From assembly GCA_003663355.1 (NCBI GenBank), contig QMZV01000001.1, positions 1-55,624 of the forward strand: a stretch of 55,624 nucleotides of DNA, written 5' to 3'. Each line of letters opens with the position of its first letter. Position 1 is the stretch's first letter. The position numbers were made by a program, and so were the translations under genes. This document shows, piece after piece, positions 8,888-47,829 of this stretch. This DNA comes from Candidatus Aenigmatarchaeota archaeon. Lineage in GTDB: Archaea; Aenigmatarchaeota; Aenigmatarchaeia; QMZS01. The notes below the pieces were generated by a model. It was given only the letters and a program-made list of their open reading frames with translations. It was not told the origin of the DNA and made no database searches.

Positions 8888-9333
8888 TAGATAGAAAGTT
8901 CGTGGATAGGTTAGTTTCACAAGCTTTAAAAGATAGTATTTCTAGATATGTTGTAGCTGCGGTAATTGCTAATGAATGCTTAAATGTTCTTTTACTTGAA
9001 AGGCCAAGAGACGAATTTCTTGGTGGCATTTATGAGTTACCTAGTGGCAAAGTAGAAGAAGGCGAATCATTATTAGAAGCTTTGTATAGAGAGACTAGAG
9101 AAGAAACAGGGATGAATATAAGAGGTATCAAAGAATATTTAGGATACTTTGACTATCTTTCTAAAAGCAAAAAGAAGACAAGGCAATTTAACTTTCATGT
9201 CGAAGTAGAAGATATCTCTCAAATAACACTAAGTGAACATTCTAGCTACGTTTGGGTATCTCATGAGGATTTAAACAAATACCGTATAACAGATAATGTC
9301 AAAAATGTTTTGAAGAAATTCTGGGGTTTTTGA
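8884..9333 (+). CDS. Nudix hydrolase
   Basis: Nudix box GKVEEGESLLEALYRETREETGM. The start overlaps the upstream stop (ATGA). Confidence 0.85.
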   Translation: MIDRKFVDRLVSQALKDSISRYVVAAVIANECLNVLLLERPRDEFLGGIYELPSGKVEEGESLLEALYRETREETGMNIRGIKEYLGYFDYLSKSKKKTRQFNFHVEVEDISQITLSEHSSYVWVSHEDLNKYRITDNVKNVLKKFWGF

Positions 9334-9336
9334 GAT

Positions 9337-9996: not shown

Positions 9997-10145
9997 AAAA
10001 GCATCTTTCCTCTCCAGATCCAAACACCCTTTCCTAGACCTACAAACTTTACCCTTTACCGAGAACAGAAAAGCTTCTTTTACTATCAAATTAAATCCAA
10101 GCCCGGCTCTTGCCGAATATCTCCTTATTTCTTCCTCACTAAAAA

Positions 10146-10865
10146 CTATTTCCACCATGATAAAAGTTCTTTTTCTCCAAGGTTATCTATAATATTCCAT
10201 TCTTTAATAAATACTCCTTTAATTCTTCCATACAAATAAATCTTTGACTTCTTATTTATTCTTTCCTTACAAAAATCTATTATTTTTTCTATCTTTTTAT
10301 TTTTTTTAGGCATAATAGAAAGCAAATAGCCCAATCTCTGAAAAAAAGAAGATTTTTCTTTAGAAATGAGATCTATAAAATTATTCCAATTTATATTCCT
10401 TGCATGATAAATAGCTTCTAAAGTCTTTTTGAAAGGAACTATTTTGTAGTATTTTAAGGAATCATAAATTGCTTTTTCTGGAAACGCAACCTTATTTTCA
10501 ACATCTACATATTTGAAATTTATAGCTTTAAAATAGACAAGTTCGTAATTGCCGAGTTTATAATTCCTAATTTTTTCAGATGCAATGTATATTGTAAAAG
10601 GATATTCAGAAATAAAATGGTAATAATAAAGGGCAGCAGTTAAAGATATATATCCAGGTTCCAACATTGTTGCAATTTTAAAAGGATCAAAATTTTTGGA
10701 AACATAAACGCCTTTCTTTGGAGAAAGAATTGTTCCTTTCTTCACCATATTTGATAAAATAACCCGCAAAGATTTTTCTGAGGTTAGATTAAAATCTTTC
10801 AGAATATTAAAAGTTAGGATTTCTGCTTCTTCTATATATTCCTTAATCTTGGTTTCAATTTTCAT
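10146..10865 (-). CDS. AbiEi-like (type IV TA antitoxin / wHTH regulator) family protein
   Basis: N-terminal wHTH-like region ending in KKGTILSPKKGVYVS. C-terminal FFQRLGYLLS resembles the RLGYLLE signature of AbiEi-type proteins. ATG 10865 (MKIETKI) preferred. Confidence 0.5.
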   Translation of the reverse strand: MKIETKIKEYIEEAEILTFNILKDFNLTSEKSLRVILSNMVKKGTILSPKKGVYVSKNFDPFKIATMLEPGYISLTAALYYYHFISEYPFTIYIASEKIRNYKLGNYELVYFKAINFKYVDVENKVAFPEKAIYDSLKYYKIVPFKKTLEAIYHARNINWNNFIDLISKEKSSFFQRLGYLLSIMPKKNKKIEKIIDFCKERINKKSKIYLYGRIKGVFIKEWNIIDNLGEKELLSWWK

Positions 10866-10913
10866 AAATAATAAATAAAACTTTAACTTTTTATAATTTT
10901 TGAAACTGAACAT

Positions 10914-11377
10914 ATGTCGTTAAATACAAATCACCAACAGGAAAAATATTGGTATCAAGAGTTTTTTAGGAGATTTTATAAGTTATGAAGCTTTAGATGC
11001 CATGTTTGTTGCGTTTGGGCTGGAAGATATGATAATTACAAAAATGAAATTACTGTTTTTTTAATAAACCCGATTATCTAGCTACAATTGCAGAGGAATT
11101 ACTCCACCTGCACTTTTAGGAAATTACGAGAAAGTTGAAGATAAGAATAGAGGAAGAGAACTTGAAGGATTTCAAAAACAATTTTTACTGGCAGCTTTCC
11201 GAGTGCATACCTTGTTTAGTATTTTCCCATTCCGAGTTGAAATTGAAATTTGGCAAATATCCAGATTGGAAAGAAGTTAGAAAGGTTTTCAAAAAAATAA
11301 GACCTCTTTGGGATAACAAAAGAAATTTTACAGATTTTTTAAAAAATGCTTTCAATTTTATATCTCCTCAGAAATAA
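10914..11377 (+). pseudogene. decayed paralogue of the 3..572 gene (frameshift plus in-frame TAG)
   Basis: Reading across frames gives CVWAGRYDNYKNEITVF (compare CAWAGRYFYPKNEIEIF), AEELLHLHF* (compare AEELFHLYFW, TGG->TAG) and RPLWDNKRNFTDFL (compare KPFWKNRKNFTDFL). Only the last 80 codons remain an ORF. Confidence 0.7.
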
Positions 11378-12192
11378 ACAATATCAAAATGTCCAGGACA
11401 CAAGATTTTTGGATTCAATTTCTTTAATCTTTTCAAAGTTCTTTCACTTTCAATTTTAGACCCACTAGGATAAGTCCATCTGCCTTGGTAATTCTTCCCG
11501 AACCATGCATCTCCTGTGAAAAGAATTTTAGCTTTTTCTTCAAAGAGAGAAATCGAGCCATCTGTATGGCCTGGAGTTTCGAGAACTTTAAAATTGAATT
11601 TGCCAGTGGTTATTACATCGCCTTCCTTTACCACCTTATCAACTTTCGTTGAAATCAACTTTTTCGGACTTTTCTCGAGCAAAACTTTTTCGTTTAATTT
11701 TTCAATAGCTTCCATTTCTTTTCTACTGCAAACAATTTCGCATTTATTGATTTTCTTTAGTTCATTCAGGAAAAGAATGTGATCAAAGTGACAATGGGTA
11801 ATAACAATTAAATCTACAGGTTTCCTAACGAGGACACCAGCATCTATGAGCACTTTTTTCTCATCATCTATGTAATAGGTAAAACATCCTATCTCTGATT
11901 TAAACAACCATATTTTTTCTGTCACTTTTTCTGGAATAATCTCTATTAAATTTTTAATCTCAAGTTTTTTTATAAATTCCTCTACATCCATCTTTATCTT
12001 ATCTGGTCCTATATCTTTAAATTTAGAGATAAGAGCTCGTTGAATGTCTTCTTTTTGATTCTTCCCATTTAGTAGTTTTATTATTTCATAACCAACTTTA
12101 TTTGTTTCATGAAGTAATTCAGTTTCTGTATCAAATAATATAAACAGATTTTGCTGCCTTCTTATTTTTACAGATTGCTTAAGTATCATCAT
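11368..12192 (-). CDS. PqqD-like (RRE-type) N-terminal domain fused to an MBL-fold metallo-hydrolase
   Basis: Residues ~5-85 (LFILFDTETELLHETNKVGYEIIKLLNGKNQKEDI...MDVEEFIKKLEIKNLI) fit the PqqD pattern. The C-terminal half has ITHCHFDH (HxHxDH), TPGHTDGS, FTGD and CPGH. Confidence 0.7.
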   Translation of the reverse strand: MMILKQSVKIRRQQNLFILFDTETELLHETNKVGYEIIKLLNGKNQKEDIQRALISKFKDIGPDKIKMDVEEFIKKLEIKNLIEIIPEKVTEKIWLFKSEIGCFTYYIDDEKKVLIDAGVLVRKPVDLIVITHCHFDHILFLNELKKINKCEIVCSRKEMEAIEKLNEKVLLEKSPKKLISTKVDKVVKEGDVITTGKFNFKVLETPGHTDGSISLFEEKAKILFTGDAWFGKNYQGRWTYPSGSKIESERTLKRLKKLNPKILCPGHFDIVYF

Positions 12193-12372
12193 AATCTAAA
12201 CCACCGGATAGCATTTTTACTTAAAAGTTTTTCCTTTTGCTTGATGGATAGATTTCTATTATTTTTCACATAACCTAACTCATCACTATAAGATAATCCA
12301 TAAGGTTCGTCACTCCCCCACATAATTTTATCTTCATAACCTCTAACAACAAGATGGTAAATAATACAATAT
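12189..12372 (-). pseudogene. C-terminal remnant of a TIM-barrel amidohydrolase
   Basis: GYEDKIMWGSDEPYG...LSKNAIRWFRL matches the extreme C-terminus of amidohydrolase-2-type proteins (xxRxxFGSDxP...NAxRL). The rest of the gene is absent and the upstream part runs into the proS 3' end. Coordinates are approximate. Confidence 0.35.
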
Positions 12373-13812
12373 TTAATAACTTCTGCAAGCATAAACATAT
12401 ACTTTTGCTTCTTTACCACAAACCAAACACTTCTTATTTATTGGTTTATTCTCTTCTGGATACAGAGTCCCTACTATTTCACAAATTTCTTTTAATTTTT
12501 CAGCGCATTTTTTACCATTTTCATCTATTGAACAGAAAGGAATTTTAACAAAACCTTCTTTAATATTTTTCTTAAGTTCTTCTAGATTCTCCGCATATTT
12601 TATTCTTCCTTCAAACCATTTTTTTGCTTCTTTCTTTAAATTTTTTGTTATTTCTTTTCCTATTTCTTCTACTCTTTCTAATTCGTTAATTTTCAATTTT
12701 ATTCTTTCTTTTATATCTCTTCTTGAAATTGTTATTTCATTATTTTTAACTTCTCTAAGACCTATCTCAATTCTAATCGGCACACCTTTTAACTCCCAAA
12801 TATTAAATTTCTCTCCAGGAGTTCTTTCACTTTCGTCCAACAATACTCTAAATTTAGATAATTTATTCTTTATATTTTCGCAATAGTTAAGAATTTCTTT
12901 TTCTTCATCTTTTTTTAGAATTGGTATTATCACTATTTGAATAGGTGCTATTTCAAAAGGCAGTCTTAAACCTTTGTTATCTCCGTGAATAGAAATCAAT
13001 GCACCTACTACTCTTTCAGCGATTCCGTAACAGGTTTGCCAGACATACTTTTTTTTACCATCTTTATCTTGGAATTTTATATCAAAAGCTTTTCCGAAAT
13101 TCTGTCCTAAGTTAATTACTGAGCCTAGCTCCAAAGTTTTCCCGTCTGGTAATACAGTGAGAAAATCATAATTGTACAAGGCCCCTGCAAATGTATCCCA
13201 TTTTGGAGTTTTAATTATGAGATAAGGTATCAATAAATCATCAAAAAATTTTCTATAAATTTCTATAGCTTCTTTTATCTGTTCTTCTGCCTCTTCCTTT
13301 GTTGCATGAGCTGTGTGGGCCTCATTAAAAAATATAACTTCTCTCAACCTTAGTAGAGGTCTTGTCATTTTTGATTCACACCGGAATATGTTTACTGTCT
13401 GAAAAATTTTCAATGGTAATTGAGCATAACTTCTTATCCACATAGACCACATATAATACATTGCTGTTTCGCTTGTTGGTCTTAGAATAAGAGGTTCATC
13501 TAATTCTTTTTTTAATGTTTTTGTGACTAAATAGGCTTCTCCTTGAAATCCTTCAAAGAACTTCTTTTCTTTCATAAAGACAGAATAAGGAATTAATGTT
13601 GGATATCTCTCTTCTTTATGTTTATGGACTTTTAGTAACAACTCCAAAATACTTATGCATTTCTTTATTAAATCCAATCCATACCAACTGTAGACATACA
13701 TACCCTTTGCCGGAAACCTATCATCAATTATTTCAGCTTTTCTTAAAACTTTCAAATACCATTTTGAGAAATCTTTATTTTTATTTATTTCGAATTCTTT
13801 TTCTTTTGACAT
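12373..13812 (-). CDS. proS: prolyl-tRNA synthetase, archaeal/eukaryotic type
   Basis: DFSKWYLKVLRKAEIID N-terminus, class II core (LRPTSET, FRCE...LLRLREV, CYGIAERV) and a C-terminal CLVCGK Zn-type domain ending in Tyr. ATG 13812 preferred over the longer ORF. Confidence 0.9.
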   Translation of the reverse strand: MSKEKEFEINKNKDFSKWYLKVLRKAEIIDDRFPAKGMYVYSWYGLDLIKKCISILELLLKVHKHKEERYPTLIPYSVFMKEKKFFEGFQGEAYLVTKTLKKELDEPLILRPTSETAMYYMWSMWIRSYAQLPLKIFQTVNIFRCESKMTRPLLRLREVIFFNEAHTAHATKEEAEEQIKEAIEIYRKFFDDLLIPYLIIKTPKWDTFAGALYNYDFLTVLPDGKTLELGSVINLGQNFGKAFDIKFQDKDGKKKYVWQTCYGIAERVVGALISIHGDNKGLRLPFEIAPIQIVIIPILKKDEEKEILNYCENIKNKLSKFRVLLDESERTPGEKFNIWELKGVPIRIEIGLREVKNNEITISRRDIKERIKLKINELERVEEIGKEITKNLKKEAKKWFEGRIKYAENLEELKKNIKEGFVKIPFCSIDENGKKCAEKLKEICEIVGTLYPEENKPINKKCLVCGKEAKVYVYACRSY

Positions 13813-13976
13813 AATTAATTGTTGAACAATAAAATAGAATATTTCTTGTTTAAATGACACTTCTAAGGCCAGTTAAATAAATATTTGAAAGATTCGTAAA
13901 ATACAGCCAATATCTTCTCCTAATAGAAGTATTGGATTTCCTAAGATTTTTAAGAGAGAAAAGTATAAAACAAAAA

Positions 13977-14060
13977 ATGGAAACTGCACTTTTAAGTGAA
14001 AAATCATTAGGGAGAGATTGGTTATTGCCAGAAGAAAATGAAGCATGGAGAGATTTGTGA
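13977..14060 (+). CDS. 27-aa MazE-like antitoxin candidate
   Basis: METALLSEKSLGRDWLLPEENEAWRDL. The xSLxxDWxxPEExxAW tail is typical of small antitoxins preceding PemK/MazF genes. The stop overlaps the GTG of the downstream toxin frame (GTGA). Confidence 0.4.
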   Translation: METALLSEKSLGRDWLLPEENEAWRDL

Positions 14061-14369
14061 AAAGAGATGTCGTAGTAGTTCCCTTTCCTTTCTCAGATTT
14101 AACGCAAGCTAAAAGAAGACCTGCTTGCGAATTTAGAAGGAGACGACTTAATTCTTTGTCAAATTACAAGCAAATTAATTAGAGATAAATATGCAATTCC
14201 GCTAGAAGATTATGATTTTGTAGAAGGATCTCTAAAACAAAGTAGCAATATTGGACCTCACAGAATTTTTACTGCAGATTATCATATTATACTTTACAAA
14301 GTAGACACTCTCAAAGTTGAAAAAATTAATGAAGTTACAGAAAAGATAATAAGTATTTTAAAAGAGTAA
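14057..14369 (+). pseudogene. MazF/PemK-family toxin gene broken by a 1-nt frameshift
   Basis: Frame 1 reads VKRDVVVVPFPFSDLTQAKRRPA and then hits a stop. The next frame reads LEGDDLILCQITSKLIRDKYAIPLEDYDFVEGSLKQSSNIGPHRIFTADYHIILYKV...KE*. Together they form a complete PemK-like sequence, with the shift near 14124-14135. Confidence 0.6.
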
Positions 14370-14449
14370 AATCACTAACTAATAAGCAAACTCAAATACT
14401 CAGCACTAATTATTTTATTTGCTCAACCCAACTTCTTTCTCTATAAAAT

Positions 14450-14725
14450 CTAAAAATCACACCAGAAAGCAAGCAACTTCATCAAATTTAACATTGCAAA
14501 TTTCTTCCTCATCGAAATTAACATACCCGAATTTTTTTCCTTTAGAGCGTGTAAAGAGAAAAAGGATTTTCCAGCTCTCCTAACACCTTTAACAACTACT
14601 ATCTCTCCGGTTTTCATTAAAGATTTCAATTTCTTTAAATATTCTTTCCTTTCTATACTTTCATCTTTATAATTTCCCCAAAAATTCCAATCTATCAATA
14701 TTCTCAATATTTCATCTTTTTTCAT
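14450..14725 (-). pseudogene. N-terminal fragment of an archaeal AAA ATPase (COG1373/DUF4143-type), frameshifted and truncated
   Basis: MKKDEILRILIDWNFW...GEIVVVKGVRRAGKS (Walker A). The conserved YVNFDEEEI continuation appears in another frame. Fewer than 100 of the ~400 codons I would expect for this family are present. Confidence 0.55.
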
Positions 14726-14777
14726 AATATATCGGTAGGTTTTAATAATAAATATTAAAATATATCGGTAGGTTTTA
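14726..14777. repeat. 19-nt direct repeat (aatatatcggtaggtttta) x2 with a 33-nt period
   Basis: Copies at 14726-14744 and 14759-14777, immediately 5' of the ATPase fragment's ATG. Confidence 0.85.
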
Positions 14778-14900
14778 TTCAATACCAATAAAATAGTTAT
14801 TTCAAATCTTTGTATAAAAATTTTATAAAACTAAATCTTCTTTGAATTTTTTATCCAATATATAAGTGCTAACAAAGTTAAATGAAAAATATTTTCTATT

Positions 14901-15383
14901 ATGGAAATATATAAGAAATTAAAAGGTCAGGCTCTTTCTTTTGATTTTCTAATATCTGCTGCAATCTTCATTTTAATTCTTGCAATACTTTTAACTCAAG
15001 TTGGAAACAGTGCAAAAGAGTTGAATGAAATTAGAGAAAAAAATGAAATGATTCAGGAGGCATATAAATTAAGTGAAATTTTCTTTAATAAAGGTTATCC
15101 TGAAAACTGGAATAGCACAAATGTAAAAATTATTGGTTTGCAAAAAGATAATAGAATTGACTGGAATAAACTCAAAAGTTTGGAAAAAATCGGTTACCAG
15201 AAATCTTTAATTTTGCTTGGTTTGAAAAATGATTACAATTTTACAATTTTTAATGATACAACCCCAATTTATAGTTTTGGAAAAAATACAGAAAAAACTT
15301 CATCAATTATGAAAGTTGACAGAATTTCAATTTTAAATGGTTCAATTGTTTCAATTCAGATTCTAGTGTTCAATTATGATTAA
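14901..15383 (+). CDS. class III signal peptide (archaeal type IV pilin-like) protein
   Basis: MEIYKKLKGQALSFDFLISAAIFILILAILL has a basic N-terminus, a KG/Q prepilin-peptidase-type site, the GQxSxDFL pattern and a hydrophobic helix. Confidence 0.55.
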   Translation: MEIYKKLKGQALSFDFLISAAIFILILAILLTQVGNSAKELNEIREKNEMIQEAYKLSEIFFNKGYPENWNSTNVKIIGLQKDNRIDWNKLKSLEKIGYQKSLILLGLKNDYNFTIFNDTTPIYSFGKNTEKTSSIMKVDRISILNGSIVSIQILVFNYD

Positions 15384-24432: not shown

Positions 24433-27400
24433 TCACCATTCTTGCTTTTTTCTTTTTTCATCATAATATCTTCTCCATTCCGCCAATTTCTTTTCTCTAA
24501 GTATCTCTTCTTCGCTTTTTCTTCTTTTGAATTTTTTAAATATGTTTTTTATTTTCTCTCCAAAGTTACATTTATTGCTCTCAAATATATATCCCTTTCC
24601 AGGAAGATAACCTTTCTTTGGAATAAGGGTATAAAATAAAATAACTCCTAAAAGAATAAGAACGAAAACAATAACACCTATTATAAGGAATGGGAAACCT
24701 CCTTTTTCTTTTAAATTACCAATTTCACTAAAAATAGAGTTTAGATCTTCCTTTAAGGAATCTATTAACTTTTTTGCTTCTATATAATTTCCTTGCTCAA
24801 TATAATTTTTTATCTGGTTTAATGTCTGGTTTGCATTATTTATTTTTTGTTCAATAGATGAAATATTTTTTCCTTTCTTTTTTGCTTCTTCAAATTTTTT
24901 AAACAGATTATCAAATTGAAATGTCAAATTTTCATAACACTTGTTTATTTTGATTTTCTCTTCTTCGCAAGGAAGAATTGTCAAATTAAATTTTTCTGTG
25001 AAATTTCTTTCATCAGAGATTGCTTTTAAAATTAATTCTTTGACTCCTATTTCTTTTGTTTTTGGAATTGTGAAACTGATTGTATATGTTTTCTCGCTGT
25101 TTTTTGAGAGATTGATTTTTAATTCAGTAATTTTAAATAAGTTTTCATCAATTCCGCTTAAAATTAAATACAAATTATGCAAAGTTGCTTCTCCTACATT
25201 TTTAACTTTAAAACTCATGTTCTTCTCTTCTCCTTGCGTAATGTTAATATCTTGAAGATTAAGAAATTTCAAGGATACTTTTTTCACTTTAAGAGTGATT
25301 TTTTTGCTCTTATTGTACTCATCTGATATAAATTTAATAGTTAAATTGTAATCTTTTGGTTCAAAGTCTTCTGGAATTGAAAAATGTATTTCAAAATCAA
25401 GTGTTTTCCCTGGACTTAAATCTCTCTTGTTATCTTTGTCATAGTCTATATTATAATAACCTTCGCTTATTCCAGACAAACTTAAATAAGAATTATGCAA
25501 TGTTGCATTTCCTGTATTTTTTACTCTAACTTTTAAATCTGCTGTTCCTCCTTGAAAAATTTCAATTTTAGAAACTTCAACATTGTTTATTTCAAGTTTC
25601 TCAAAGGAGATGCTATAATATATTGTTGGATTTTCATTTACATTTCCGTTATTTTGCGTTGAGGAACTTGTTATTGTTATTTCACCAATTTTTTTAAAAT
25701 CAGAATATTGACTTGTGGAATTTTCTACTCCGGACAATTTCACATAGATATTTTTATCTCCTGTTGAAGTACAAGAAAACCCTGAAGCATGATAGGATTT
25801 AATGGAGTTATTATTTATTTTTTCTGAAGTATCTGCTGTTTTATTTGTGCCACAAACTTTAATTTCAATTTTATTTATAAAAGCTGCCCAGTCCCCTGTG
25901 TTTTTGATCTTGATATACACATCAAATGAAGAATTTACAGATTTTGAAGAAGGTGTGTTATCTTCATCTAAAGAAACAACTAAATTGCCGTATTTGACAA
26001 CAATATTTTGTTGTATTGTTTTATTAAATCTTCCATCGGCTGAAGAAGCAGTTATGTTTATTGTATAAGTTCCCTTTTCTGTTCCATTTAAAGTCCAATT
26101 TAACAATTTTGAATTACTCTGGTTTATATTTCCAGCAGATTTTGTTAGATTATCTGTTGTACTAATTGCAGATGGCAATTGCAAAGTAACATTAACATTT
26201 TCTGCACTTAAATTTCCCAATTTTGAGATATTTATTTTAAATTCAAATGGATAACCTTTAACAATTGAATTCAAATCGCTTACAACACTCAAATTCAAAT
26301 CGTGCAACAATTCAAAAGTTAGATTTACTTCTGCAGTATTATTTGCATTATCCACTAAATTTCCCAAAATTGTATAATTACAACCTTCTTTAAAAATTGT
26401 TTTGTTTGTTGTGTTTAAATCTGCTGAAAACAATTTTGCAGAATTATCAAAAGTAAAATTTAAAGTTTGTGCAAGATTTCCTGTTGAGTTTAAAATTTCC
26501 AAAGTATAATTTTTTGATATATTCCATAAGTCATCTTTTGTCTGGTTGTCAAAGAAATAAACAGAGAAATTTAACTCTGTTAAATTGTCAGATTCAAAAT
26601 AATAAACTTTTTTGTTTAATCTTGGCAAAGTTTTGTTTGTTACATTGAAATTTAGAGTTAAGTTTAGGTATTTGAATGGTTGGCCGTTTGAGGAATTTAA
26701 ATAAATCCACCCAGAATAAGTTCCAGTAATATTTGGAGAAAAAACAGTTAGATTTATAGTTTTTGAATTGCCATTTGATATATTTACAGGCTCTGAAATA
26801 TTTGTTTCATTAATCCAACAAATAGAAAAATTTAATCCACTAAAACTGCTGTTAGAAACTGTTAAGTTTTCTAAATTTGAACTTCCAGTATTATTTACAA
26901 CGAATAATAAACTCTTTGTCTGATTCAAATTTATAAACAAATTTCTCGTTTTGTTGTAATTTTCAGTTTCCCCAGCTTCTAAAGATTGATTTCCAATATA
27001 ATAATTTTCCTTATAGTTTGGTCTGAGTTTTAGAATTGGTGCGGAGAGATTTATGTTTACAGGCAATTCAAAAGAATTCTTAGTGGCGGTAATTTTTATA
27101 ACAGTGTTATAATTTCCATCCACAACTTTATTTTCAGGAGAGGTTAAATTAAAGTAAACAACAGAACTGCTCTCGTTTGTCAAATTTCCCAATTTGGTAA
27201 TATTATTTCCGGATAAATGAATTGTTAAATTATAAGAGAAACTTGTTGTATCATTAGTGTTGTTTATTAAAACGGTCCAGTAGCCTTCAGAGATATCTGT
27301 TGTGAATGTCCAATTATTTCCCCCTTTTGTTGAATTTATCAAACCACCAGTTGAATTATAAAGAGATAGATTTATTTCATTTGTTGCATTAGAAACAAGA

Positions 27401-29799
27401 GAAACATTTATTGAAACAACAGAATTGTTATCAACATAAAAGGTCCAGTTTTTTGTTGTTCCATTTGAAATTGTCTTGTTTTCAAATTTGTGCTTAACAT
27501 CTGTAAAATTTGTTTTGAATCTATTATCCAAGAATTTAATTGTCAAATTGAAAGTTTCATTTCCAGAAACATTTTCACCGAAAACAGTTGCCCTCCAGAT
27601 TCCATATTTTACTTTTGTAATATTTAACTCTGTTATTAAAAAATTTCCACCACCAGAAGTATTTTCAAAATTCTCCCCAGTTCTCAGATTTGTCAGGTTC
27701 AAAGTTAAATTATTTGTTGAATTTGTCCAGGTCAGATTTGCTGTTAAATTTGAAGAAAAAGGAACAATAAATGTAAAATTTTTAGTTTGATTTGAAATAT
27801 TTTGATTTTGCCAATCATAAGTTAGATAATAATTTTCCACACTCAGAGTAACATTTTCTTCTGCTGCCGTTGTTTTGATGGTGAAATTTCTGTTTTTTGT
27901 TTGGGCAGGTTCTAAACTTAAATTTTCTTCCCGTTCCGCTTCAATGAAACTTTTTGTAATTATTAAAGTTCCAGATAGATTATTACTTTGCGTTGCAGAA
28001 ATATTTACAGAGCCGCTTGAAGTTTCGCCAAACCATATTGTTATATTCCAAATTCCTAGTTCGGGATTGCTTATTATGATGCTATTTTCTGTAGTATTGG
28101 TTTTGTTACTTTCTTTTGTTATGTTATCCTTTTCCACGGCAAGATAGCTGTCAGTTAAAACAGAAAAATTAGCTTTTACAATTAAATTGGAAATATTTCC
28201 TATTTCAACCAAGTAATTTTTTGTTTCGCAATCTGTTTGAATTTCTATTTTTTTCTTTAATATAAATGGGACATCTACTTCCATACCAACTGATATTATA
28301 GTTGAATTTGTATCTTCTGTTATATTTACATCAATTTTTCCAGTATAAATTCCAGAAGAATTTTCAGGTGCTGTCAGATTAATATTTATTGTTGTGCTGT
28401 TCGTATTATTTATTGTCAGAATTTCGTTCCCCGTTGCATTATAACTCAAATTTCCATCAACCCAGGCGAATATATTTGAGTTATTTATTGTTTGATTTTC
28501 ACTATTTGTCAGATTTGAAAAAGTTATTGTAATGTTTATATTTTTTGTTGAAATTATTGTTATATTTTTTGTTTCAGTGCTGTTTGACTCCAAAATAAAT
28601 TCCAATTTTTTCGGAATAACCGAAACATTAAATTCTGATAAATTTAGATAAGTAAGATAAGGATCTATTCTTGAATGATTTTCATTATTGCCAATACTTA
28701 TTCCCGTATTTATAAACAAATCCTCTAATTCCTGCGGTGTTTTTGATATTCCTTTTAATTCAAGATATTGCTTAATTAAGGCAAAAGCTCCTGCAACATG
28801 AGGGGTTGCCATTGAGGTTCCATCTAAATTTTTCCAACCATTTGGCCAAGTTGAATAAATTGATTCGCCAGGAGCAAAGAGAATTGGTAAATTCCAGTAA
28901 TTGCTAAAACTAGAAATTGAATCTTCACCATTCACAGAACCAACAGGAGTTGCATTCTGAATGCATGCGGGTAATGAAATAGCACTTGAATTATACTCAT
29001 TTCCGCTCGCAACAATAACAGAAATATTTTTTGCTGTTGCATTGTTTATTGCAGAAGTTAGTAGTGGCACTTCAGCATCGCAATAACTGTTATTATGATA
29101 ATCTGTTGTGCCAAGACTCATTGAAATCACTGAAATATTGTATTCTTCTGAGAAATCTGTGCAGTAATTTATTCCTGCAATAAGATCATCAAAATTGGCA
29201 TATCCTCGTTCTCCAAAAATATTCACAACAACCAATTTAGAATCAGGAGCAACTCCTTTGTAAGTAGTATTATTTGAAGCAATAATCCCAGCAACATGAG
29301 TTCCATGCCCTACTTTATCGTAGCAAGCAGAATGATTTGAGGAGCAATTATATTTTTCATCCATTGAACTATTTTCTACAAATCTCCATCCTCCGAGAAT
29401 TTTTCCACTACTCCAGTTTCCACCAAGAGCAGAATGATTGTAATCAATTCCTGTGTCAATAATGCAAATTGTTTGCCCTTTTCCAGTCAAATTTATTCCA
29501 TTTACAGAGATATTCCACAATTTATCCGCCTGAATTTGAGGAACAGATTCATCCAAGAAAGCATAAACTTTCAGATTTGGATAAATTTTGTATCCTTTTG
29601 CTTTTAATTCATCAATTTGAGTTTCGTTTAATTCCCCAGAACAGGAATTTGTTCCGTAAATTTGGTTACATTTTATGTTTTGTTGAGTCAGACTAGAAAT
29701 TCCTATCTCACCCGTTGGAGGTGTTATAATATAACTATCTGCAAAACATGGTGCAGTTAAAACAATCAATAAAACAAGCAATAACTCTATTTTCTTCAT
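24433..29799 (-). CDS. giant membrane-anchored surface protein: N-terminal subtilisin (S8) protease plus a long Asn-rich beta-repeat stalk with CARDB-like repeats
   Basis: Signal peptide MKKIELLLVLLIVLTAPCFA. Catalytic triad contexts IIDTGIDYNH, GHGTHVAGI and GTSMATPHVAG. About 1300 aa saturated with NxS/T sequons. Two tandem CARDB-like units are present (...DLKVRVKNTGNATLHNSYLSLSGI... and ...MSFKVKNVGEATLHNLYLILSGI...). Coiled coil, single TM (FPFLIIGVIVFVLILLGVILFY) and a basic tail. Confidence 0.85.
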   Translation of the reverse strand: MKKIELLLVLLIVLTAPCFADSYIITPPTGEIGISSLTQQNIKCNQIYGTNSCSGELNETQIDELKAKGYKIYPNLKVYAFLDESVPQIQADKLWNISVNGINLTGKGQTICIIDTGIDYNHSALGGNWSSGKILGGWRFVENSSMDEKYNCSSNHSACYDKVGHGTHVAGIIASNNTTYKGVAPDSKLVVVNIFGERGYANFDDLIAGINYCTDFSEEYNISVISMSLGTTDYHNNSYCDAEVPLLTSAINNATAKNISVIVASGNEYNSSAISLPACIQNATPVGSVNGEDSISSFSNYWNLPILFAPGESIYSTWPNGWKNLDGTSMATPHVAGAFALIKQYLELKGISKTPQELEDLFINTGISIGNNENHSRIDPYLTYLNLSEFNVSVIPKKLEFILESNSTETKNITIISTKNINITITFSNLTNSENQTINNSNIFAWVDGNLSYNATGNEILTINNTNSTTININLTAPENSSGIYTGKIDVNITEDTNSTIISVGMEVDVPFILKKKIEIQTDCETKNYLVEIGNISNLIVKANFSVLTDSYLAVEKDNITKESNKTNTTENSIIISNPELGIWNITIWFGETSSGSVNISATQSNNLSGTLIITKSFIEAEREENLSLEPAQTKNRNFTIKTTAAEENVTLSVENYYLTYDWQNQNISNQTKNFTFIVPFSSNLTANLTWTNSTNNLTLNLTNLRTGENFENTSGGGNFLITELNITKVKYGIWRATVFGENVSGNETFNLTIKFLDNRFKTNFTDVKHKFENKTISNGTTKNWTFYVDNNSVVSINVSLVSNATNEINLSLYNSTGGLINSTKGGNNWTFTTDISEGYWTVLINNTNDTTSFSYNLTIHLSGNNITKLGNLTNESSSVVYFNLTSPENKVVDGNYNTVIKITATKNSFELPVNINLSAPILKLRPNYKENYYIGNQSLEAGETENYNKTRNLFINLNQTKSLLFVVNNTGSSNLENLTVSNSSFSGLNFSICWINETNISEPVNISNGNSKTINLTVFSPNITGTYSGWIYLNSSNGQPFKYLNLTLNFNVTNKTLPRLNKKVYYFESDNLTELNFSVYFFDNQTKDDLWNISKNYTLEILNSTGNLAQTLNFTFDNSAKLFSADLNTTNKTIFKEGCNYTILGNLVDNANNTAEVNLTFELLHDLNLSVVSDLNSIVKGYPFEFKINISKLGNLSAENVNVTLQLPSAISTTDNLTKSAGNINQSNSKLLNWTLNGTEKGTYTINITASSADGRFNKTIQQNIVVKYGNLVVSLDEDNTPSSKSVNSSFDVYIKIKNTGDWAAFINKIEIKVCGTNKTADTSEKINNNSIKSYHASGFSCTSTGDKNIYVKLSGVENSTSQYSDFKKIGEITITSSSTQNNGNVNENPTIYYSISFEKLEINNVEVSKIEIFQGGTADLKVRVKNTGNATLHNSYLSLSGISEGYYNIDYDKDNKRDLSPGKTLDFEIHFSIPEDFEPKDYNLTIKFISDEYNKSKKITLKVKKVSLKFLNLQDINITQGEEKNMSFKVKNVGEATLHNLYLILSGIDENLFKITELKINLSKNSEKTYTISFTIPKTKEIGVKELILKAISDERNFTEKFNLTILPCEEEKIKINKCYENLTFQFDNLFKKFEEAKKKGKNISSIEQKINNANQTLNQIKNYIEQGNYIEAKKLIDSLKEDLNSIFSEIGNLKEKGGFPFLIIGVIVFVLILLGVILFYTLIPKKGYLPGKGYIFESNKCNFGEKIKNIFKKFKRRKSEEEILREKKLAEWRRYYDEKRKKQEW

Positions 29800-29886: not shown

Positions 29887-30138
29887 ATGGAAATTAAAGT
29901 AATTTATACTGATGAATTTAAAAATGATTTAAAAAAGATAAAAGACAAAACAATTCAAGACCGCGTTGAGAAAATTATACAAAAGATAATAGATAACCCA
30001 AAAGTTGGGAAGCCTTTATGTTATGACCTTGCTGGCTTGAGAAGTATGAGGATCCCTCCATTTAGGCTTATCTATGAATTCACAGAAGATAAAATAGTTT
30101 TGCATAAATTTGGACATAGAAAAAAAGTTTATAAATGA
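29887..30138 (+). CDS. RelE/ParE-family toxin
   Basis: 83 aa. ...LKKIKDKTIQDRVEKIIQKIIDNP..GKPLCYDLAGLRSMRIPPFRLIYEF.EDKIVLHKFGHRKKVY is the canonical RelE/ParE pattern. Confidence 0.75.
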   Translation: MEIKVIYTDEFKNDLKKIKDKTIQDRVEKIIQKIIDNPKVGKPLCYDLAGLRSMRIPPFRLIYEFTEDKIVLHKFGHRKKVYK

Positions 30139-30139: not shown

Positions 30140-30358
30140 TTATTTCCACAAATCACTAAAGTTTCTTAGTTCATGAACCCGGCCAAATTTTAAATCCTCT
30201 CTTGATCTATTCAAACCTTCTATTAATTCTTTGTCATTTTTTATTTCAATTGTTTCTATTAAACTTTCTAGTCTATCAGCAAGTCTAACTATCTCTTCAA
30301 AAGTTTTATAATCTACTAAAATTTGTCTTGGATAATTAATTAATTGAGTTCCTCCCAT
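30140..30358 (-). CDS. antitoxin-like small protein, convergent with the RelE gene
   Basis: 72 aa from ATG 30358. ...ETIEIKNDKELIEGLNRSREDLKFGRVHELRNF resembles the C-terminal (xxSxEDxKxGRV) tail common in archaeal Phd/RelB-like antitoxins. Confidence 0.4.
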   Translation of the reverse strand: MGGTQLINYPRQILVDYKTFEEIVRLADRLESLIETIEIKNDKELIEGLNRSREDLKFGRVHELRNFSDLWK

Positions 30359-30646
30359 ATATAAAATTATAAGTTTTATAAATATATACTTCAACCTAAA
30401 CTTCTTGGAATTTCATCTAAGGTTCCTTTCTCAGTAGTTTCTTCAAAAAAATCTCAACAATTTCATTAAATCTTTTTCTTACTCTCTCATAATTTTCTCC
30501 ACTTGTAGACAAATTGAGAGCCTAATAATAAGCAACAAATCTATTGTCCTCCTTAAATATAGAAAGTGGAATAGTAATATTTAATCCAATTATATTTTTC
30601 TCTATTATAATTAATAAAATAAACCAAAAAATTATAAAAAATAAAT

Positions 30647-30988: not shown

Positions 30989-31227
30989 AATTTGTAAATT
31001 ATTATTTATTTAATATTAAGAAAAATAACGGCAATTGTTGAAATTTTAATTTTATCAATGAGAAGTCTCTTTTTTAGAATTGATTTTGGTTAGTTGCAAT
31101 GCTATAGACAGATTATTTAAAAACAAATTCAAAGACTTTATATCCATTATTGATGATATACTAAGATCACAAATTTTATCCCTACATAGAAATTTTGCTT
31201 AATAAAATCAAAAAAACAAAGAGAATT

Positions 31228-32016
31228 ATGAGTGGTGAAAAGATGATTATAAAGAAGCTTTTAGAAAAATTTGAAATAAAGGATATGAATGATTGGAATA
31301 ATGTTAATGCTGATTTGGTTATAACAGACCCGCCTTTTGGAATAGAATTTAGCGGGAAAAATGGAAATTATCATAGAAATGCAGAATATGTTGTTGATGG
31401 CTATGTTGAATGGGGGGTTTCAGAATATGGACAGAAAATTCAGCAATTATTAGAAGTAATTAAAAGAAATTTAAAATCCAATGGACAAGGTTTAATATTC
31501 TCTGGGTGGAATAACAGTAATATAATTCACGACAGGGTTATGAGATTTAAAGGATTAACATTAAGAGGTAAATTATATTGGACCTACAATTTTGCTCCTA
31601 CATGCAAAAAAAGACCTGCCCATAATGTTTATGAAATTTTTTGGGTAACAAAAAGTGATAAATGGGTATATAACACAAGATGTACTACCCATCATTGTCA
31701 AAGAGGAGAACCAAATTTAACAACTCTTAATTTTAAGAGAGATTATAAAGTAAAAATGCCAAAGTATCCAACAAGATTGCCATTTAAGCTATTACAATGT
31801 TTGATAGAGCATTTTTCCAATAAAGGAGATCTGATATTTGATCCTTTGGCTGGTAGTGGAATGGTTGGGGTAGTAGCATATTTTTTAAAAAGGGATTTTA
31901 TATTAGGAGATTTAAACTCAAATGGAAAAGTAGTATTTGAAGCTCTTTTGGATTATTATATAAATAAAAATGGTTTTGTACAGGATAAGAAATTATTAAC
32001 ATGGTGGAAAAAATGA
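31228..32016 (+). CDS. beta-class amino (N6-adenine or N4-cytosine) DNA methyltransferase
   Basis: Motif IV VITDPPFG lies near the N-terminus. AdoMet motif I LIFDPLAGSGMVG lies near the C-terminus, giving the IV->I order of the beta class. ATG 31228 or 31243 preferred over the TTG at 31195. Confidence 0.8.
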   Translation: MSGEKMIIKKLLEKFEIKDMNDWNNVNADLVITDPPFGIEFSGKNGNYHRNAEYVVDGYVEWGVSEYGQKIQQLLEVIKRNLKSNGQGLIFSGWNNSNIIHDRVMRFKGLTLRGKLYWTYNFAPTCKKRPAHNVYEIFWVTKSDKWVYNTRCTTHHCQRGEPNLTTLNFKRDYKVKMPKYPTRLPFKLLQCLIEHFSNKGDLIFDPLAGSGMVGVVAYFLKRDFILGDLNSNGKVVFEALLDYYINKNGFVQDKKLLTWWKK

Positions 32017-33221
32017 GTGAAATAGATTTTGTTAAGAAATTGGTATTCAAAATAGCAGAAGTGGGTCATCAAAGAAAGATTATGGATTCCCCTTCTTTAG
32101 CAGATATAGAACCATTTCGACACTTCTTTGACAGAAATGGAAATTTAAAATATGATGAACTAAACTCTATGGATGGTGCTTGGACAAGAAGAGAAATTTT
32201 AGCAAGATTTCTTTTGTTAAGTGTTGTTTTAGACCAAGGACCAGATATTCCTGGAGTTAGGGATTTCTTGAAGAATGTAACCAATGCTCTTTACAGAAAA
32301 GAAATAAGGATATTCCATAGATCACTAGATTTCTTTAGAGAGTTAAATATTTCTATTGATGAGATTTTAGATAAGCACAATTCTGTTAAAAAGTTAAGAG
32401 CAAAGATATGGGCTAAACTTAACAACTCAAATCCAAGTAAATATAATTTATTTTTTGCTCAATCCCCAAGAGGAATAATTTCTATTAATCAGGTATTAGA
32501 TTACGGAATTCACAGATGGGGTGTTCCGTTATGTGTTCCTCTACTTTTAGAGAAAGATTTAGGTGAAAAAGAATCAACCCAACCATTTGTAGAATATTTG
32601 GAAAGTTTTGAATCTTCTGAAATAATGAGTAAAGAACTAAAAAATCATGAAAGATATGGACTTGGTAGTGCAATAGGAAATAAAGCTTGTCACTTATTTG
32701 TTAAATGGTACATCCATACATTTAGTTTATCTTCTAAAAAAGAAGATGGTTGGAGTAAATGGTCTTTTGAAGTTCCTTTTGATAGCAATGCAGGTAGGGT
32801 ATTATTTAGAGCAGGATTTTTTACCTCTTTTGCAGATTTAGAAGATTACGAAGATTGGGAGGTGATACAAAAGGGTAAAGGAAAAGGAAAAACTCATTAT
32901 ATTAGAGTAACAAATATAAGAGGTAAAAAAGTTCAGAAAGACATTGAGGATGAAAAAATTATAGAAAACTATAATAATGTCGTTTTAAACCACTTAAAAA
33001 TTAGGAAGAAACCTCCCACCAAACTAGAAATTCAACAGATCCCTAATACAATATTGCTTAATTCAAAGTTTGGAATTGGAGATTTTGATGATGGGCTTAT
33101 TTACATAGGAACTAAATTTTGTTTTAATCATGAGAAACCAGATTGTAAAAATTGTCCATTAAAAGATCTGTGTTTAAGTAAAAATAAGAAACCTGAATTA
33201 ATTAAAAATTATAGAACATAA
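32013..33221 (+). CDS. divergent HhH-GPD superfamily (EndoIII/MutY-like) protein with a [4Fe-4S] cluster loop
   Basis: LLLSVVLDQGPD (compare LLSAQATD of Nth), GLGSAIGNKACHLF (HhH / GVGRKTANVVL), PFDSNAGRVLFRAGF (VDTHIFRVCNR, catalytic Asp) and LIYIGTKFCFNHEKPDCKNCPLKDLC (C-x7-C-x2-C-x5-C versus C-x6-C-x2-C-x5-C). ATG 32013 overlaps the MTase TGA (ATGA). Confidence 0.65.
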   Translation: MSEIDFVKKLVFKIAEVGHQRKIMDSPSLADIEPFRHFFDRNGNLKYDELNSMDGAWTRREILARFLLLSVVLDQGPDIPGVRDFLKNVTNALYRKEIRIFHRSLDFFRELNISIDEILDKHNSVKKLRAKIWAKLNNSNPSKYNLFFAQSPRGIISINQVLDYGIHRWGVPLCVPLLLEKDLGEKESTQPFVEYLESFESSEIMSKELKNHERYGLGSAIGNKACHLFVKWYIHTFSLSSKKEDGWSKWSFEVPFDSNAGRVLFRAGFFTSFADLEDYEDWEVIQKGKGKGKTHYIRVTNIRGKKVQKDIEDEKIIENYNNVVLNHLKIRKKPPTKLEIQQIPNTILLNSKFGIGDFDDGLIYIGTKFCFNHEKPDCKNCPLKDLCLSKNKKPELIKNYRT

Positions 33222-33305: not shown

Positions 33306-34829
33306 CTACTCAACTTCAATATCAACAAAAATTGGAGATTTTATTTTTATTTCTTTCTTGTTGTCAAGCAGATATTTTAAAATTTCATTTTTCAATTTTA
33401 AGTTAATTGAAGGCAAGGTGTCAGCATATCTTATTGTTAATCTTCCTTTTTTTCCATTTTCTATCTGATAGGCAAAATAATTTGAAATTGAATCTAAAAA
33501 AGAGCAGACATAAACCCCATTTTTTATAATCTTCTCAAATTTCTTGTCATCTGATTTTACTCCGAGAATATTTCCATTATAAACATAAATTTCATTTAGA
33601 CCACCAGGACCTAATAACTTTTTTCCTTCCTCTGGTTCAGAGACATAGATTTTTATATCTTTATCATATATTTTCTTTCTTGCTATTCCAATTAAATCTT
33701 TGTTTTCAATAATACCAAGTTTAATAATCTTTGCAATTTTTTTACCTTCTTTTGTTTTCGGTTTTTTATCTATTTTAATTCCGGCTGCAATCTCTAAGTC
33801 AGAAAATTCAAATTTTTTTGGATAATATAACTCTCTAATATCTTTTATATTTTCCAGAGCCATCACAATTCTTCCAAGCCCTGGACCAGAATTAAAAACA
33901 GGATATTTTATTTTATAATTCGCAAGGGAAACAGGAGAATACATACCAATTTCAGAAACTTCAATCCAACCAATTTTTTTGTGTTTTACAAAAACCTCGT
34001 AATTTGTCCCCGGAGCATAGTAAGCTGGCTGATTTGGTTTTATTTTAAATTTCACATGTTCAAAACCTAATTTTTTGAAGAATTTTTCTGTCAACTCTTT
34101 TCCATTTTCAATTTTAAAATCTTCGTCCATAACAATCATTGAGAAATTCAGATGCGCCCTCAGATGTTTTTTGTCTTCCCTCTGTTCCCTTCTAAATCTC
34201 CACACAAGAGAGAAAAGCATTATTGGATGTTCTTTTTTATCCTGCAATTCTGCCAGCAAGGGAAACCATGCCGTTGTTGCATGCGATATCAAAGAAAAAT
34301 TTGTTGGTTCAGGCTTTAATTCAAGCAATTCTTTAAAAACAGTATTTATTAAATAAAGAGCATCAGAAGTTTTAATTTTTAATCTTGAAACAAGAGATTC
34401 CGTAAAATCTTCTCCGCCTTCTATTTCGTTTCTCTTGTATTCCTTTAGAATTTCCTGCAATTCTCTAAATTTTTTGAAATTTGGCAATCTTCTTCTAATT
34501 AACTCTTTTTTTTCATTTGATAAACCAATATCAGGTCTTGGAATTGTTGCAAGGTAATACAATCGATCCAAAATTGCTCCCGCTTCAGGTCCATATTGTT
34601 TTTTGACTTCTTCATCAAGTTGAATTGGATTTAAAATAACTTCATCAAAACCCATTTTTAAGAGAATCTCTCTAATTCTAAAAATATATTTCCACAACAG
34701 ATGCTCGGAACCCCTTTTCTTTTTTTCAGTAAACTTTCCTTTTCCTTTTACCAATTCTGCAGTTTTTTTCCATTCAAGTTCCCAGTTCTCCTTTGCTTTT
34801 TTCTTTATTTCTTCTGGATTAAATAACAT
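33306..34829 (-). CDS. sepS: O-phosphoseryl-tRNA(Cys) ligase (SepRS)
   Basis: Collinear by eye with methanogen SepRS as I recall it. Shared blocks: GFDEVILNPI, LDRLYYLATIPRPDIGLS, SHATTAWF, LFSLVWRFRREQ, GWIEVSEIGMYSP and GPGLGRIVMAL. Confidence 0.8.
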   Translation of the reverse strand: MLFNPEEIKKKAKENWELEWKKTAELVKGKGKFTEKKKRGSEHLLWKYIFRIREILLKMGFDEVILNPIQLDEEVKKQYGPEAGAILDRLYYLATIPRPDIGLSNEKKELIRRRLPNFKKFRELQEILKEYKRNEIEGGEDFTESLVSRLKIKTSDALYLINTVFKELLELKPEPTNFSLISHATTAWFPLLAELQDKKEHPIMLFSLVWRFRREQREDKKHLRAHLNFSMIVMDEDFKIENGKELTEKFFKKLGFEHVKFKIKPNQPAYYAPGTNYEVFVKHKKIGWIEVSEIGMYSPVSLANYKIKYPVFNSGPGLGRIVMALENIKDIRELYYPKKFEFSDLEIAAGIKIDKKPKTKEGKKIAKIIKLGIIENKDLIGIARKKIYDKDIKIYVSEPEEGKKLLGPGGLNEIYVYNGNILGVKSDDKKFEKIIKNGVYVCSFLDSISNYFAYQIENGKKGRLTIRYADTLPSINLKLKNEILKYLLDNKKEIKIKSPIFVDIEVE

Positions 34830-47696: not shown

Positions 47697-47829
47697 CGCT
47701 GGGGCTGGGATTCGAACCCAGGTTCCCAGATGGGAACATGCTTAGCAGGCATGCGCCTTATTGTGGAAGTTTTCATTTGCTTAAACCTTTTTTAAAGGAA
47801 AAAGACTTTAACCACTCGGCCACCCCAGC
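47697..47829 (-). tRNA. tRNA-Ser(GCU) with a ~50-nt non-canonical intron in the D-loop
   Basis: Acceptor GCUGGGG/CCCCAGC with G73. Anticodon arm CAUGC-CUGCUAA-GCAUG. Long variable arm UUCCC-AUCU-GGGAA. T arm CUGGG-UUCGAAU-CCCAG. D-arm GCCGAGUGGUU...AAGGC is interrupted at about 47760-47809. No encoded CCA. Confidence 0.85.

Follow-up and report, generated by a model that had tools for sequence, protein, structure and literature searches.

The restriction enzymes of restriction-modification (R-M) systems use five folds: PD-(D/E)XK, HNH, GIY-YIG, phospholipase D (PLD) and the PabI half-pipe. PabI alone among them works by base excision (PMC10273834): the R.PabI family (PabI, HpyAXII) forms Type II pairs in which the enzyme, which also has apurinic/apyrimidinic (AP) lyase activity, removes a base at an unmethylated palindrome of 4 bp. 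It is the sole restriction-glycosylase family named in a 2023 review and, among the papers searched, in those after 2022 that use the term (PMC10273834), and a 2025 review of R-M systems cites the PabI papers alone for base excision within such systems. PabI systems have moved between archaea and bacteria, form a conserved family, are accompanied by avoidance of the recognition site in their hosts and frequently show decay of the restriction gene (PMC10273834, PMC4615327). Here we describe a two-gene cassette on a contig of a Candidatus Aenigmatarchaeota archaeon (QMZV01000001.1, positions 1 to 55,624; the whole stretch of 55,624 nucleotides is referred to as the window). It consists of a DNA methyltransferase (MTase) gene and the gene of a 402-residue protein, the partner, and, as judged from sequence comparison, it is probably an R-M system in which a restriction enzyme of novel fold acts by base excision.

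What is proposed for the cassette follows the PabI scheme, but the proteins differ: R.PabI has a HALFPIPE fold, lacks an Fe-S cluster and recognizes GTAC, whereas the partner is an HhH-GPD protein with a [4Fe-4S] cluster loop and a predicted AGCT site; R.PabI is biochemically proven, whereas the partner family is known here from sequences and models. With the repair glycosylases Nth (EndoIII) and MutY, the partner appears to share superfamily and fold, keeping the Cx(6-7)Cx2Cx5C loop and residues that correspond to Q41, D44, K120 and D138 of Nth; unlike them, it lies below detection by Pfam and PDB searches except for the loop, and it is rare, patchily distributed and MTase-linked rather than housekeeping. 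Mig.MthI, an Fe-S glycosylase of the EndoIII family, likewise has its gene next to that of a DNA MTase (M.MthTI, which forms 5-methylcytosine, m5C), and the fold search with A2, a sister family of the partner, matched its structure (1kea); the enzyme repairs deamination products of m5C beside a nuclease-based R-M system, however, whereas the cassette has amino-MTases, no nuclease gene and an avoided site. DEMETER and ROS1 combine an HhH-GPD domain with an Fe-S loop, a large insertion and the Lys and Asp of bifunctional enzymes, and they act on epigenetic state; they are eukaryotic, excise the methylated base and belong to no MTase cassette, in contrast to the partner, which would excise an unmethylated base. 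Glycosylase-type domains are also used against foreign DNA by END nucleases and Brig1 (PMC12191111). In the END nucleases, the EndoIII domain is inactive and fused to a PLD nuclease, the target is hypermodified DNA and there is no MTase (PMC12191111), whereas the partner retains its catalytic residues, stands alone and is MTase-coupled. Brig1 is described as structurally unlike EndoIII (PMC12191111).

Distribution and linkage to the methyltransferase

The partner family is small: an exhaustive representative search of 1.84 billion proteins returned 137 representatives at E ≤1e-3, and every one of the family's 499 matches is annotated as hypothetical. A scan of one genome per species, covering 185,579 species, gave 78 partner loci in more than 20 phyla of Bacteria and Archaea. 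Carriers include DPANN groups, Methanocaldococcus, Thermoplasmata, Asgard archaea and haloarchaea on the one side and Thermotogota, Chloroflexota, Planctomycetota, Nitrospirota, WOR-3 and Gammaproteobacteria on the other. Cultured strains among them are Thermanaerothrix daxensis GNS-1, Thioalkalivibrio sp. HK1, Halorubrum yunnanense and Halorubellus sp. PRR65; Methanocaldococcus WP_297318450.1 is, like the T. daxensis copy, a homologue from a thermophile. Linkage was tallied over 82 sequences (the 78 genome loci, three loci from exact look-up and the window) and called with a hidden Markov model (HMM) built from diverse adjacent MTases. A beta-class N6_N4 MTase lies directly upstream of the partner on the same strand in 61 of the 82 sequences and is adjacent in other orientations in seven more, which brings the total within 400 bp to 68; in five others the distance is 0.5-1.1 kb. 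The two sequences that have adequate flanks and no MTase hold 5'-truncated remnants of the partner, and in the remaining seven the flanking DNA is too short to judge linkage. Every intact partner copy with enough flank adjoins an N6_N4 MTase. When all flanking open reading frames (ORFs) were clustered, partner and MTase proved to be the sole conserved genes, with no third in 75 loci; other recurring flanking 'families' appear to be shadow ORFs over the two genes, the coordinates having been checked for the largest one.

The genes around the cassette are housekeeping genes unrelated among loci (IleRS/Trm1, MscS, Nth/ArgG, XPD/ProRS, L33/Def/Era, SepRS). A copy 89% identical to that of the window sits in a different archaeal context, and one that is 76% identical sits among the bacterial genes for L33, Def and Era; on the evidence of its sequences, the pair has undergone recent transfer between the domains. 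No partner homologue was found in plasmids, phages or IMG/VR viral contigs. Linkage to the MTase within a mobile cassette is almost certainly obligate, and the cassette is probably a two-gene, horizontally mobile, Type II-like R-M module. An earlier note, made from the letters of the window alone, had asked whether the partner belongs to a patchy, mobile family systematically adjacent to MTases or is an ordinary EndoIII orthologue; the linkage, the spread over more than 20 phyla and the unrelated neighbourhoods speak for the former, and the small size of the family speaks against the latter. So does a Nitrospirae metagenome-assembled genome (MAG) that has an nth of its own (L025, 3632-4255). 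This canonical gene encodes a product with 43% identity to E. coli Nth and meets the cassette MTase with a slight overlap; the two HhH-GPD proteins coexist there, and that they are neighbours is probably chance.

Placement of the partner in the EndoIII/MutY superfamily

No Pfam, NCBIfam or PADLOC family matches the partner as such; only its cluster loop is detected directly, also by phmmer against the PDB. At this loop, TIGR01084 (mutY) matches with E 9.5e-5, and all 27 PDB matches of the family profile are MutY, EndoIII or ROS1; PF10576 is matched by 29 of 42 family members. PF00730 (HhH-GPD) matches neither the window protein nor any of the 42 members, even at E up to 1, and there is no Pfam match to RE_R_Pab1, the fold matches being HhH-GPD enzymes. 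Of the profile matches that the earlier note had proposed looking for, those of N6_N4_Mtase and the Fe-S loop are thus found and that of HhH-GPD is not. An AlphaFold2 (AF2) model of the partner, built on 42 homologues, has a predicted local distance difference test score (pLDDT) of 86 and a predicted template modelling (TM) score (pTM) of 0.85. In a Foldseek search its sole meaningful PDB matches are MUTYH and MutY, and these are weak (probability 0.97, E 0.11, TM 0.32-0.43); taken alone, the search with the full-length model is suggestive.

The placement is provided by the sister family A2. P0369, a protein of 299 residues from the tail of the exhaustive representative search, aligns with the partner family (A1) in three collinear blocks and with MUTYH over the stretch that begins with the Asp helix and ends with the cluster loop. 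It belongs to A2, a family of 53 clusters, mostly from Thermoproteota and including Thermogladius calderae TCELL_0684, whose members are short EndoIII-fold Fe-S proteins of ~295 residues (loci L082-L087, e.g. L083 4001-4888, which is TCELL_0684). The profiles of A1 and A2 match over 269 collinear columns (hhalign 98.9%, E 3.8e-17), and that of A2 aligns with the Nth profile across Nth residues 9-207 (hhalign 91.8%, E 7e-7). For the A2 model (pLDDT 94.8), the top 50 PDB matches in Foldseek are EndoIII, MutY, MUTYH, Mig (1kea), NTHL1, ROS1 and AGOG. Probability is 1.00 in 49 cases and 0.99 in the fiftieth, and TM reaches 0.69; a precomputed PF00730 match exists in one A2 member only. A2 is also MTase-linked, in all five contexts examined, often with one or two small ORFs in between.

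Through A2, the partner helix LLLSVVLDQGPD (residues 67-78) corresponds to A2 LLLAAVLDQQAD and Nth LLIAVLLSAQATD, which places Q75 and D78 at Nth Q41 and D44. K224 corresponds to A2 K178 and Nth K120, D257 to A2 D/N211 and Nth D138, and the four loop cysteines map in all three; around the Asp, partner PFDSNAGRVLFRAGF aligns with A2 MV(V/I)(N/D)GHVCKVLARTGF, which in turn aligns with Nth D138 and the Asp helix of MUTYH. Residue conservation was judged in a 42-sequence alignment of the partner family, which shows no variation at Q75, D78, K224 and D257, at the four cluster cysteines or in the segment YGLGSAIGDKA...GW...VPFD257SNAGRVLFR; in the AF2 model, D257 caps helix 258-267. K224, at the start of the second HhH helix, has the position of the lysine of bifunctional enzymes (Nth K120, OGG1 K249), from which lyase activity is predicted, and C370, C378, C381 and C387 are predicted to bind the cluster.

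The partner differs from Nth by an N-terminal extension of ~55 residues, ~70 extra residues before the HhH, a hairpin longer by 3-4 residues and an insertion of ~65 residues (268-335) after the Asp helix. From the lysine to the aspartate there are 33 residues in the partner and 18 in the canonical Nth-type arrangement, and from D257 to C370 there are 113 as compared with 49 in E. coli Nth. The excess in the latter interval is ~64 residues; the earlier note had given ~110 as extra.

Direct comparison with Nth is misled by the 268-335 insertion. A search with hhalign against the single Nth sequence aligned the loop alone, and direct alignment of the HhH/Asp segment is not significant (E 0.2). 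Against the Nth profile (E 5e-4), THYIRV (THYIRVTN) was paired with Nth DTHIFRV and PFDSNAGRV with the HhH hairpin. This register was rejected because the residue at its 'Asp' position is not conserved, because the segment forms a strand and a short helix in the model and is absent from A2, and because the bridge through P0369 and A2 yields the register of the earlier note instead. The LLSxxxxD-type helix, the HhH with its lysine, the catalytic-Asp segment and the C-x7-C-x2-C-x5-C loop that had been read from the window are present and invariant or nearly so in the 42 homologues, and the HhH-GPD fold with its Nth residue mapping is confirmed by way of A2. The partner is very probably homologous to the HhH-GPD/[4Fe-4S] glycosylases; its membership of the superfamily holds at the level of remote homology and fold, not at that of a Pfam family.

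Avoidance of AGCT in host DNA

Depletion of the recognition site in host DNA is the trace that an active restriction enzyme classically leaves. Palindromic tetranucleotides were counted in the sequence surrounding the cassettes, the cassettes themselves being masked, and the counts were compared with those expected under a maximal-order Markov model; as controls, 80 Nth-encoding metagenome contigs were taken, of which the 52 of at least 5 kb were used. Around the cassettes, AGCT was observed 611 times and expected 1363 times, an observed-to-expected ratio (O/E) of 0.45 with a median of 0.28 (72 loci), as opposed to 1.01 with a median of 1.04 in the controls (52 loci; Mann-Whitney p 6e-17). The ratio falls below 0.5 at 50 of 75 cassette loci and at none of the 52 control loci. 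The depletion persists in every GC stratum, and some hosts are down to 0-1 copies where 11-29 are expected. Among all 136 strand-symmetric tetranucleotides, AGCT ranks first, with a system-to-control ratio of 0.47, followed by CTAG with 0.68. All 16 NAGCTN contexts are equally depleted, and the avoided word is therefore the tetramer itself; six-base palindromes around AGCT were considered as the site and rejected, there being no preference for HindIII, PvuII or SacI contexts.

AGCT holds both A and C, which would explain why MTases of the N6-methyladenine (m6A) and N4-methylcytosine (m4C) types are exchangeable beside the same partner. Methylation alone does not purge sites, since a thaumarchaeotal genome with orphan AGCT m4C methylation keeps ~6,200 of them (PMC6329791), and avoidance of GTAC by the host is likewise seen for PabI (PMC10273834). 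Hosts of the sister family A2 show no AGCT avoidance. In relation to the integrity of the partner, the picture is mixed: L022, L072 and L080 still avoid AGCT, whereas L059, L070, L074 and L076 do not.

The window shows a further pattern of its own. Its most under-represented 4-bp palindrome is GATC (48 observed, 115 expected, O/E 0.42), and CTAG, TCGA and GTAC are also low, which suggests other restriction systems in the genome, e.g. a GATC-directed one.

Methyltransferase replacement, partner decay and controller-like genes

The cassette MTases fall into at least four clades, with DPPF as motif IV in 39, SPPY in 24 and DPPY in 7. Between the clades, MTases are 18-28% identical and partners 43-52%. 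At L010 and L017, 80% identity between the partners contrasts with 22% between the MTases, of which one has SPPY and the other DPPF; by sequence comparison, this difference is an MTase replacement. The partner is disrupted at about nine loci (by frameshifts, truncations and a 2-kb insertion), in most of which coding sequence of the MTase can still be recognized.

Controller (C) proteins of Type II R-M systems are encoded directly before the MTase. A gene of ~70 codons for an XRE-type helix-turn-helix (HTH) protein lies directly 5' of the MTase in L171 (4930-5142) and L172 (1355-1567), and a related HTH gene lies ~260 bp upstream of it in L040 (2688-2855). By analogy, the gene resembles those of C proteins; it occurs at three loci from two lineages, is absent from the window and is not family-wide.

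Individual loci offer some additional observations. In L070, from a Methanocaldococcaceae MAG, ~2 kb of inserted DNA interrupts the partner gene (1174-3171), and in the Altiarchaeales SM1 assembly the partner is split over two contigs (L007 with L078); both breaks could be insertion-sequence disruptions. At L010, a second N6_N4 MTase (SPPY) and an overlapping 357-residue ORF (1823-3728) are found 1.3 kb 5' of the cassette and may be another R-M pair, giving a small defence cluster.

Proposed mechanism and alternative explanations

A restriction-type function of the cassette is quite likely. The full statement, that the cassette is an AGCT-directed R-M system with a glycosylase/AP-lyase as its restriction enzyme, goes further in what it reads from sequence, and we regard it as reasonably probable for the family and as somewhat less so for the window's own copy. 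The comparative evidence (AGCT avoidance, MTase swaps, partner decay and the controller-like gene) supports the R-M-like pair with an HhH-GPD glycosylase that the earlier note had put forward; from it we infer the base-excision chemistry, its methyl-sensitivity, the base removed and AGCT as the site in the window.

In the proposed scheme, the amino-MTase would mark the DNA of its host, with AGCT as the most likely site, on A (N6) or on C (N4). The co-translated partner would attack unmethylated sites, flipping a base and excising it by means of D257 and the helix with Q75 and D78; K224 would form a Schiff base, and the strand would be nicked by beta-elimination. As the site is palindromic, both strands would be hit, leaving closely opposed, 3'-blocked breaks in the incoming DNA. 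Recognition of the sequence, we guess, comes from the 268-335 insertion together with the extended N-terminal half. We lean slightly towards regarding the cassette as a second, independent invention of base-excision restriction, with an EndoIII/MutY-fold enzyme recruited from DNA repair.

Several observations weigh against the glycosylase reading or its extension to all lineages. The direct profile comparison of partner and Nth is weak and mis-registered, and the catalytic mapping rests on transitive alignment. Most A2 members have Asn at the position of the catalytic Asp; MTase-linked members of the superfamily therefore need not all be active glycosylases. The partner is far better conserved than its MTases, which is unusual for restriction enzymes. 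In the window, AGCT depletion is mild (114 observed, 136.5 expected, O/E 0.84) and uneven, with 57 copies for 44.3 expected in positions 1-15000 (1.29) and 57 for 93.4 in 15001-55624 (0.61) at a GC content of 0.30 in both; history or coding constraints may not be the same in the first 15 kb as in the rest. O/E is 0.77 in L168, which carries the closest relative (the 89% identical system), and about 0.77 in Asgard, haloarchaeal and related loci. Given the weak depletion at these loci and in the window, site or activity may differ among lineages. The controls for AGCT, finally, are random Nth-bearing metagenome contigs and not matched cassette-free relatives.

Linkage, swapping, decay and AGCT avoidance are all independent of chemistry, and the partner of an R-M system might cut in another manner, e.g. 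as a phosphodiesterase that uses the HhH-GPD/Fe-S scaffold for DNA binding and base flipping. The N-terminal 55 residues and residues 79-200 and 268-335, the last with HYIRVTNIRGKK, have no assigned function, and inactive EndoIII domains serve as sensors in END nucleases (PMC12191111). This variant is nevertheless unlikely: Pfam, NCBIfam, PADLOC and fold searches revealed no nuclease motif or domain in the partner, and a vestigial glycosylase site would leave the invariance of the Nth-type set (Q, D, K, D) without explanation. That the partner does not catalyse at all and is a DNA-binding sensor, a targeting or specificity factor of the MTase or a regulator, in a cassette that is epigenetic and not defensive, would accord with the Asn of most A2 members, which are still MTase-linked, and with the base-sensing role of inactive EndoIII domains elsewhere (PMC12191111). 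It is quite improbable for the long family, whose Asp, Lys and Q/D helix do not vary; AGCT avoidance, moreover, implies damage at unprotected sites, and there is no other conserved gene to cause it.

The two remaining explanations keep the glycosylase and give it another substrate. As a repair companion of the Vsr or Mig kind, the partner would remove lesions or mismatches at or from methylated sites, or off-target alkylation by the MTase; Mig.MthI, an EndoIII-family enzyme, does adjoin an m5C R-M system, its structure is among the A2 fold matches, and the high conservation of the partner is more repair-like than restriction-like. However, the cassette MTases are amino-MTases (DPPF, DPPY or SPPY), and no special mismatch arises because the products of such enzymes do not deaminate to a normal base. 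A repair enzyme would exert no selection against its site, but in some hosts AGCT is purged to 0-1 copies, and thousands of sites persist in thaumarchaeotal genomes that have orphan AGCT m4C (PMC6329791). Loss of the partner with retention of the MTase and the presence of a controller-like gene fit a toxic gene instead. A Mig-like role, which had been judged a poor fit from the window alone, is highly improbable on these grounds. The earlier note's own alternative, a methyl-base excision or 'demethylase' module in which the glycosylase excises the m6A or m4C made by its own MTase, is not supported. Its model is the removal of 5-methylcytosine by DEMETER/ROS1, HhH-GPD/Fe-S enzymes with a domain insertion, and ROS1 is among the cluster-loop matches; but writer and eraser of one mark in a mobile cassette would be futile and self-damaging, and neither MTase swapping between base types nor site avoidance would be explained, so that we consider such a module extremely improbable.

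If the reading as a glycosylase-based R-M system is true, the partner would represent a sixth restriction-enzyme fold, in which the commonest fold of repair glycosylases is turned, sequence-specifically, on normal unmethylated DNA. Prokaryotes would then supply a precedent for what DEMETER/ROS1 do in plants, namely the reading of methylation on normal bases by an HhH-GPD enzyme; the cassette could serve as a model for the readout of sequence and methylation by such enzymes, with a bearing on how DEMETER-type demethylases arose. The partner family is represented by no model in PADLOC, Pfam or NCBIfam, and catalogues of defence systems miss it entirely. Other MTase-linked 'hypothetical' partners may conceal further non-nuclease restriction mechanisms. 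As a possible reagent, the partner would be an AGCT-specific, methyl-sensitive glycosylase or nickase, some members of the family being from thermophiles.

Organization of the locus and its surroundings

In the window, the cassette is an island of two plus-strand genes flanked on both sides by minus-strand genes (Table 1), as had been described, and the ATGA that joins the MTase stop to the partner ATG is exact in the sequence; overlapping or nearly abutting genes are common in related loci. An alternative in-frame ATG of the partner lies at 32001. The open frame of the MTase, 31195-32016, opens with TTG at 31195; the start was taken as the ATG at 31228 because homologues align from that residue. 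Motif IV lies 5' of motif I, which is the beta-class order, and the profile match agrees with the assignment as a beta-class amino-MTase made from the motifs. The nearest solved relatives are M1.HpyAVI (annotated as DpnA-type), an N4-cytosine MTase and CcrM; as far as homology bears on the base and the site, these structures span both m6A and m4C enzymes.

Table 1. Coordinates of the cassette, its motifs and its immediate neighbours in the window
Feature	Position	Strand	Basis or remark
Membrane ORF, 113 aa	30647-30988	-	Neighbour on the 5' side of the cassette
Intergenic stretch 5' of the MTase, presumed to hold promoter and leader of the two-gene operon	30989-31227	+	Sequence
Beta-class N6-adenine/N4-cytosine DNA MTase, 262 aa	31228-32016	+	Pfam PF01555 (N6_N4_Mtase) E 9e-24; PADLOC MTase_II E 1.5e-26
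MTase motif IV, DPPF within ITDPPFG (TDPPFG)	31327-31338	+	Translation; same motif in MTases of the closest related cassettes
MTase motif I, FDPLAGSGMVG, AdoMet-binding loop	31837-31869	+	Translation
ATGA overlap: partner ATG 32013-32015, MTase TGA 32014-32016	32013-32016	+	Exact, sequence
Partner, 402-aa HhH-GPD/[4Fe-4S]-cluster-loop protein, candidate restriction glycosylase/AP-lyase	32013-33221	+	Homology via A2, AF2 model
Helix LLLSVVLDQGPD, residues 67-78	32211-32246	+	D74, Q75, G76, P77, D78 invariant; Q75/D78 = Nth Q41/D44
Helix-hairpin-helix segment GLGSAIGNKACHLF, residues 216-229	32658-32699	+	G216, G218, G222, K224 invariant; K224 candidate Schiff-base lysine
Catalytic-Asp helix PFDSNAGRVLFRAGF, residues 255-269	32775-32819	+	D257, S258, N259, G261, R262 invariant
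Family-specific insertion, ~65 residues (268-335), with invariant basic motif HYIRVTNIRGKK	32814-33017	+	R298, V299, T300, R303 invariant; absent from A2 in profile alignment
[4Fe-4S] cluster loop C370-x7-C378-x2-C381-x5-C387	33120-33173	+	Four Cys invariant in 42 homologues
SepRS (O-phosphoseryl-tRNA synthetase)	33306-34829	-	Neighbour on the 3' side of the cassette

Pfam and NCBIfam scans of the window proteins found no nuclease domain adjoining the cassette, in line with the observation in the earlier note that no PD-(D/E)XK or HNH nuclease is adjacent and with the lack of a third conserved gene in the related loci. Boundaries of a mobile element were looked for and rejected, the cassette in the window having no flanking or bounding repeats and no break in GC content or composition. 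The 11-nt motif AACGGCAATTG, which had been pointed out just upstream of the MTase, has one exact copy (31027-31037) and copies with one mismatch at 669-679 (-) and 5856-5866 (+); at least three matches were reached in 6 of 100 shuffles, so that its count is not above chance, and the motif is not part of the cassette.

Further features of the window lie outside the cassette. Just 5' of it, a ParE/RelE-type toxin gene (29887-30138, +; Pfam E 1.5e-13) has no obvious co-directional antitoxin ORF; an ORF of 84 codons (30140-30394, -), with a weak DUF2683 match alone, is convergent with it. At 47697-47829 (-), where ARAGORN gave no tRNA, Rfam reports a tRNA over 133 nt (51 bits, full model), a length that an intron would fit. 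The region 24433-29799 (-) encodes a secreted subtilase-like protein of 1788 residues with extremely abundant N-x-S/T sequons and a C-terminal transmembrane anchor, probably a surface protease or S-layer-associated protein of this AT-rich archaeon.

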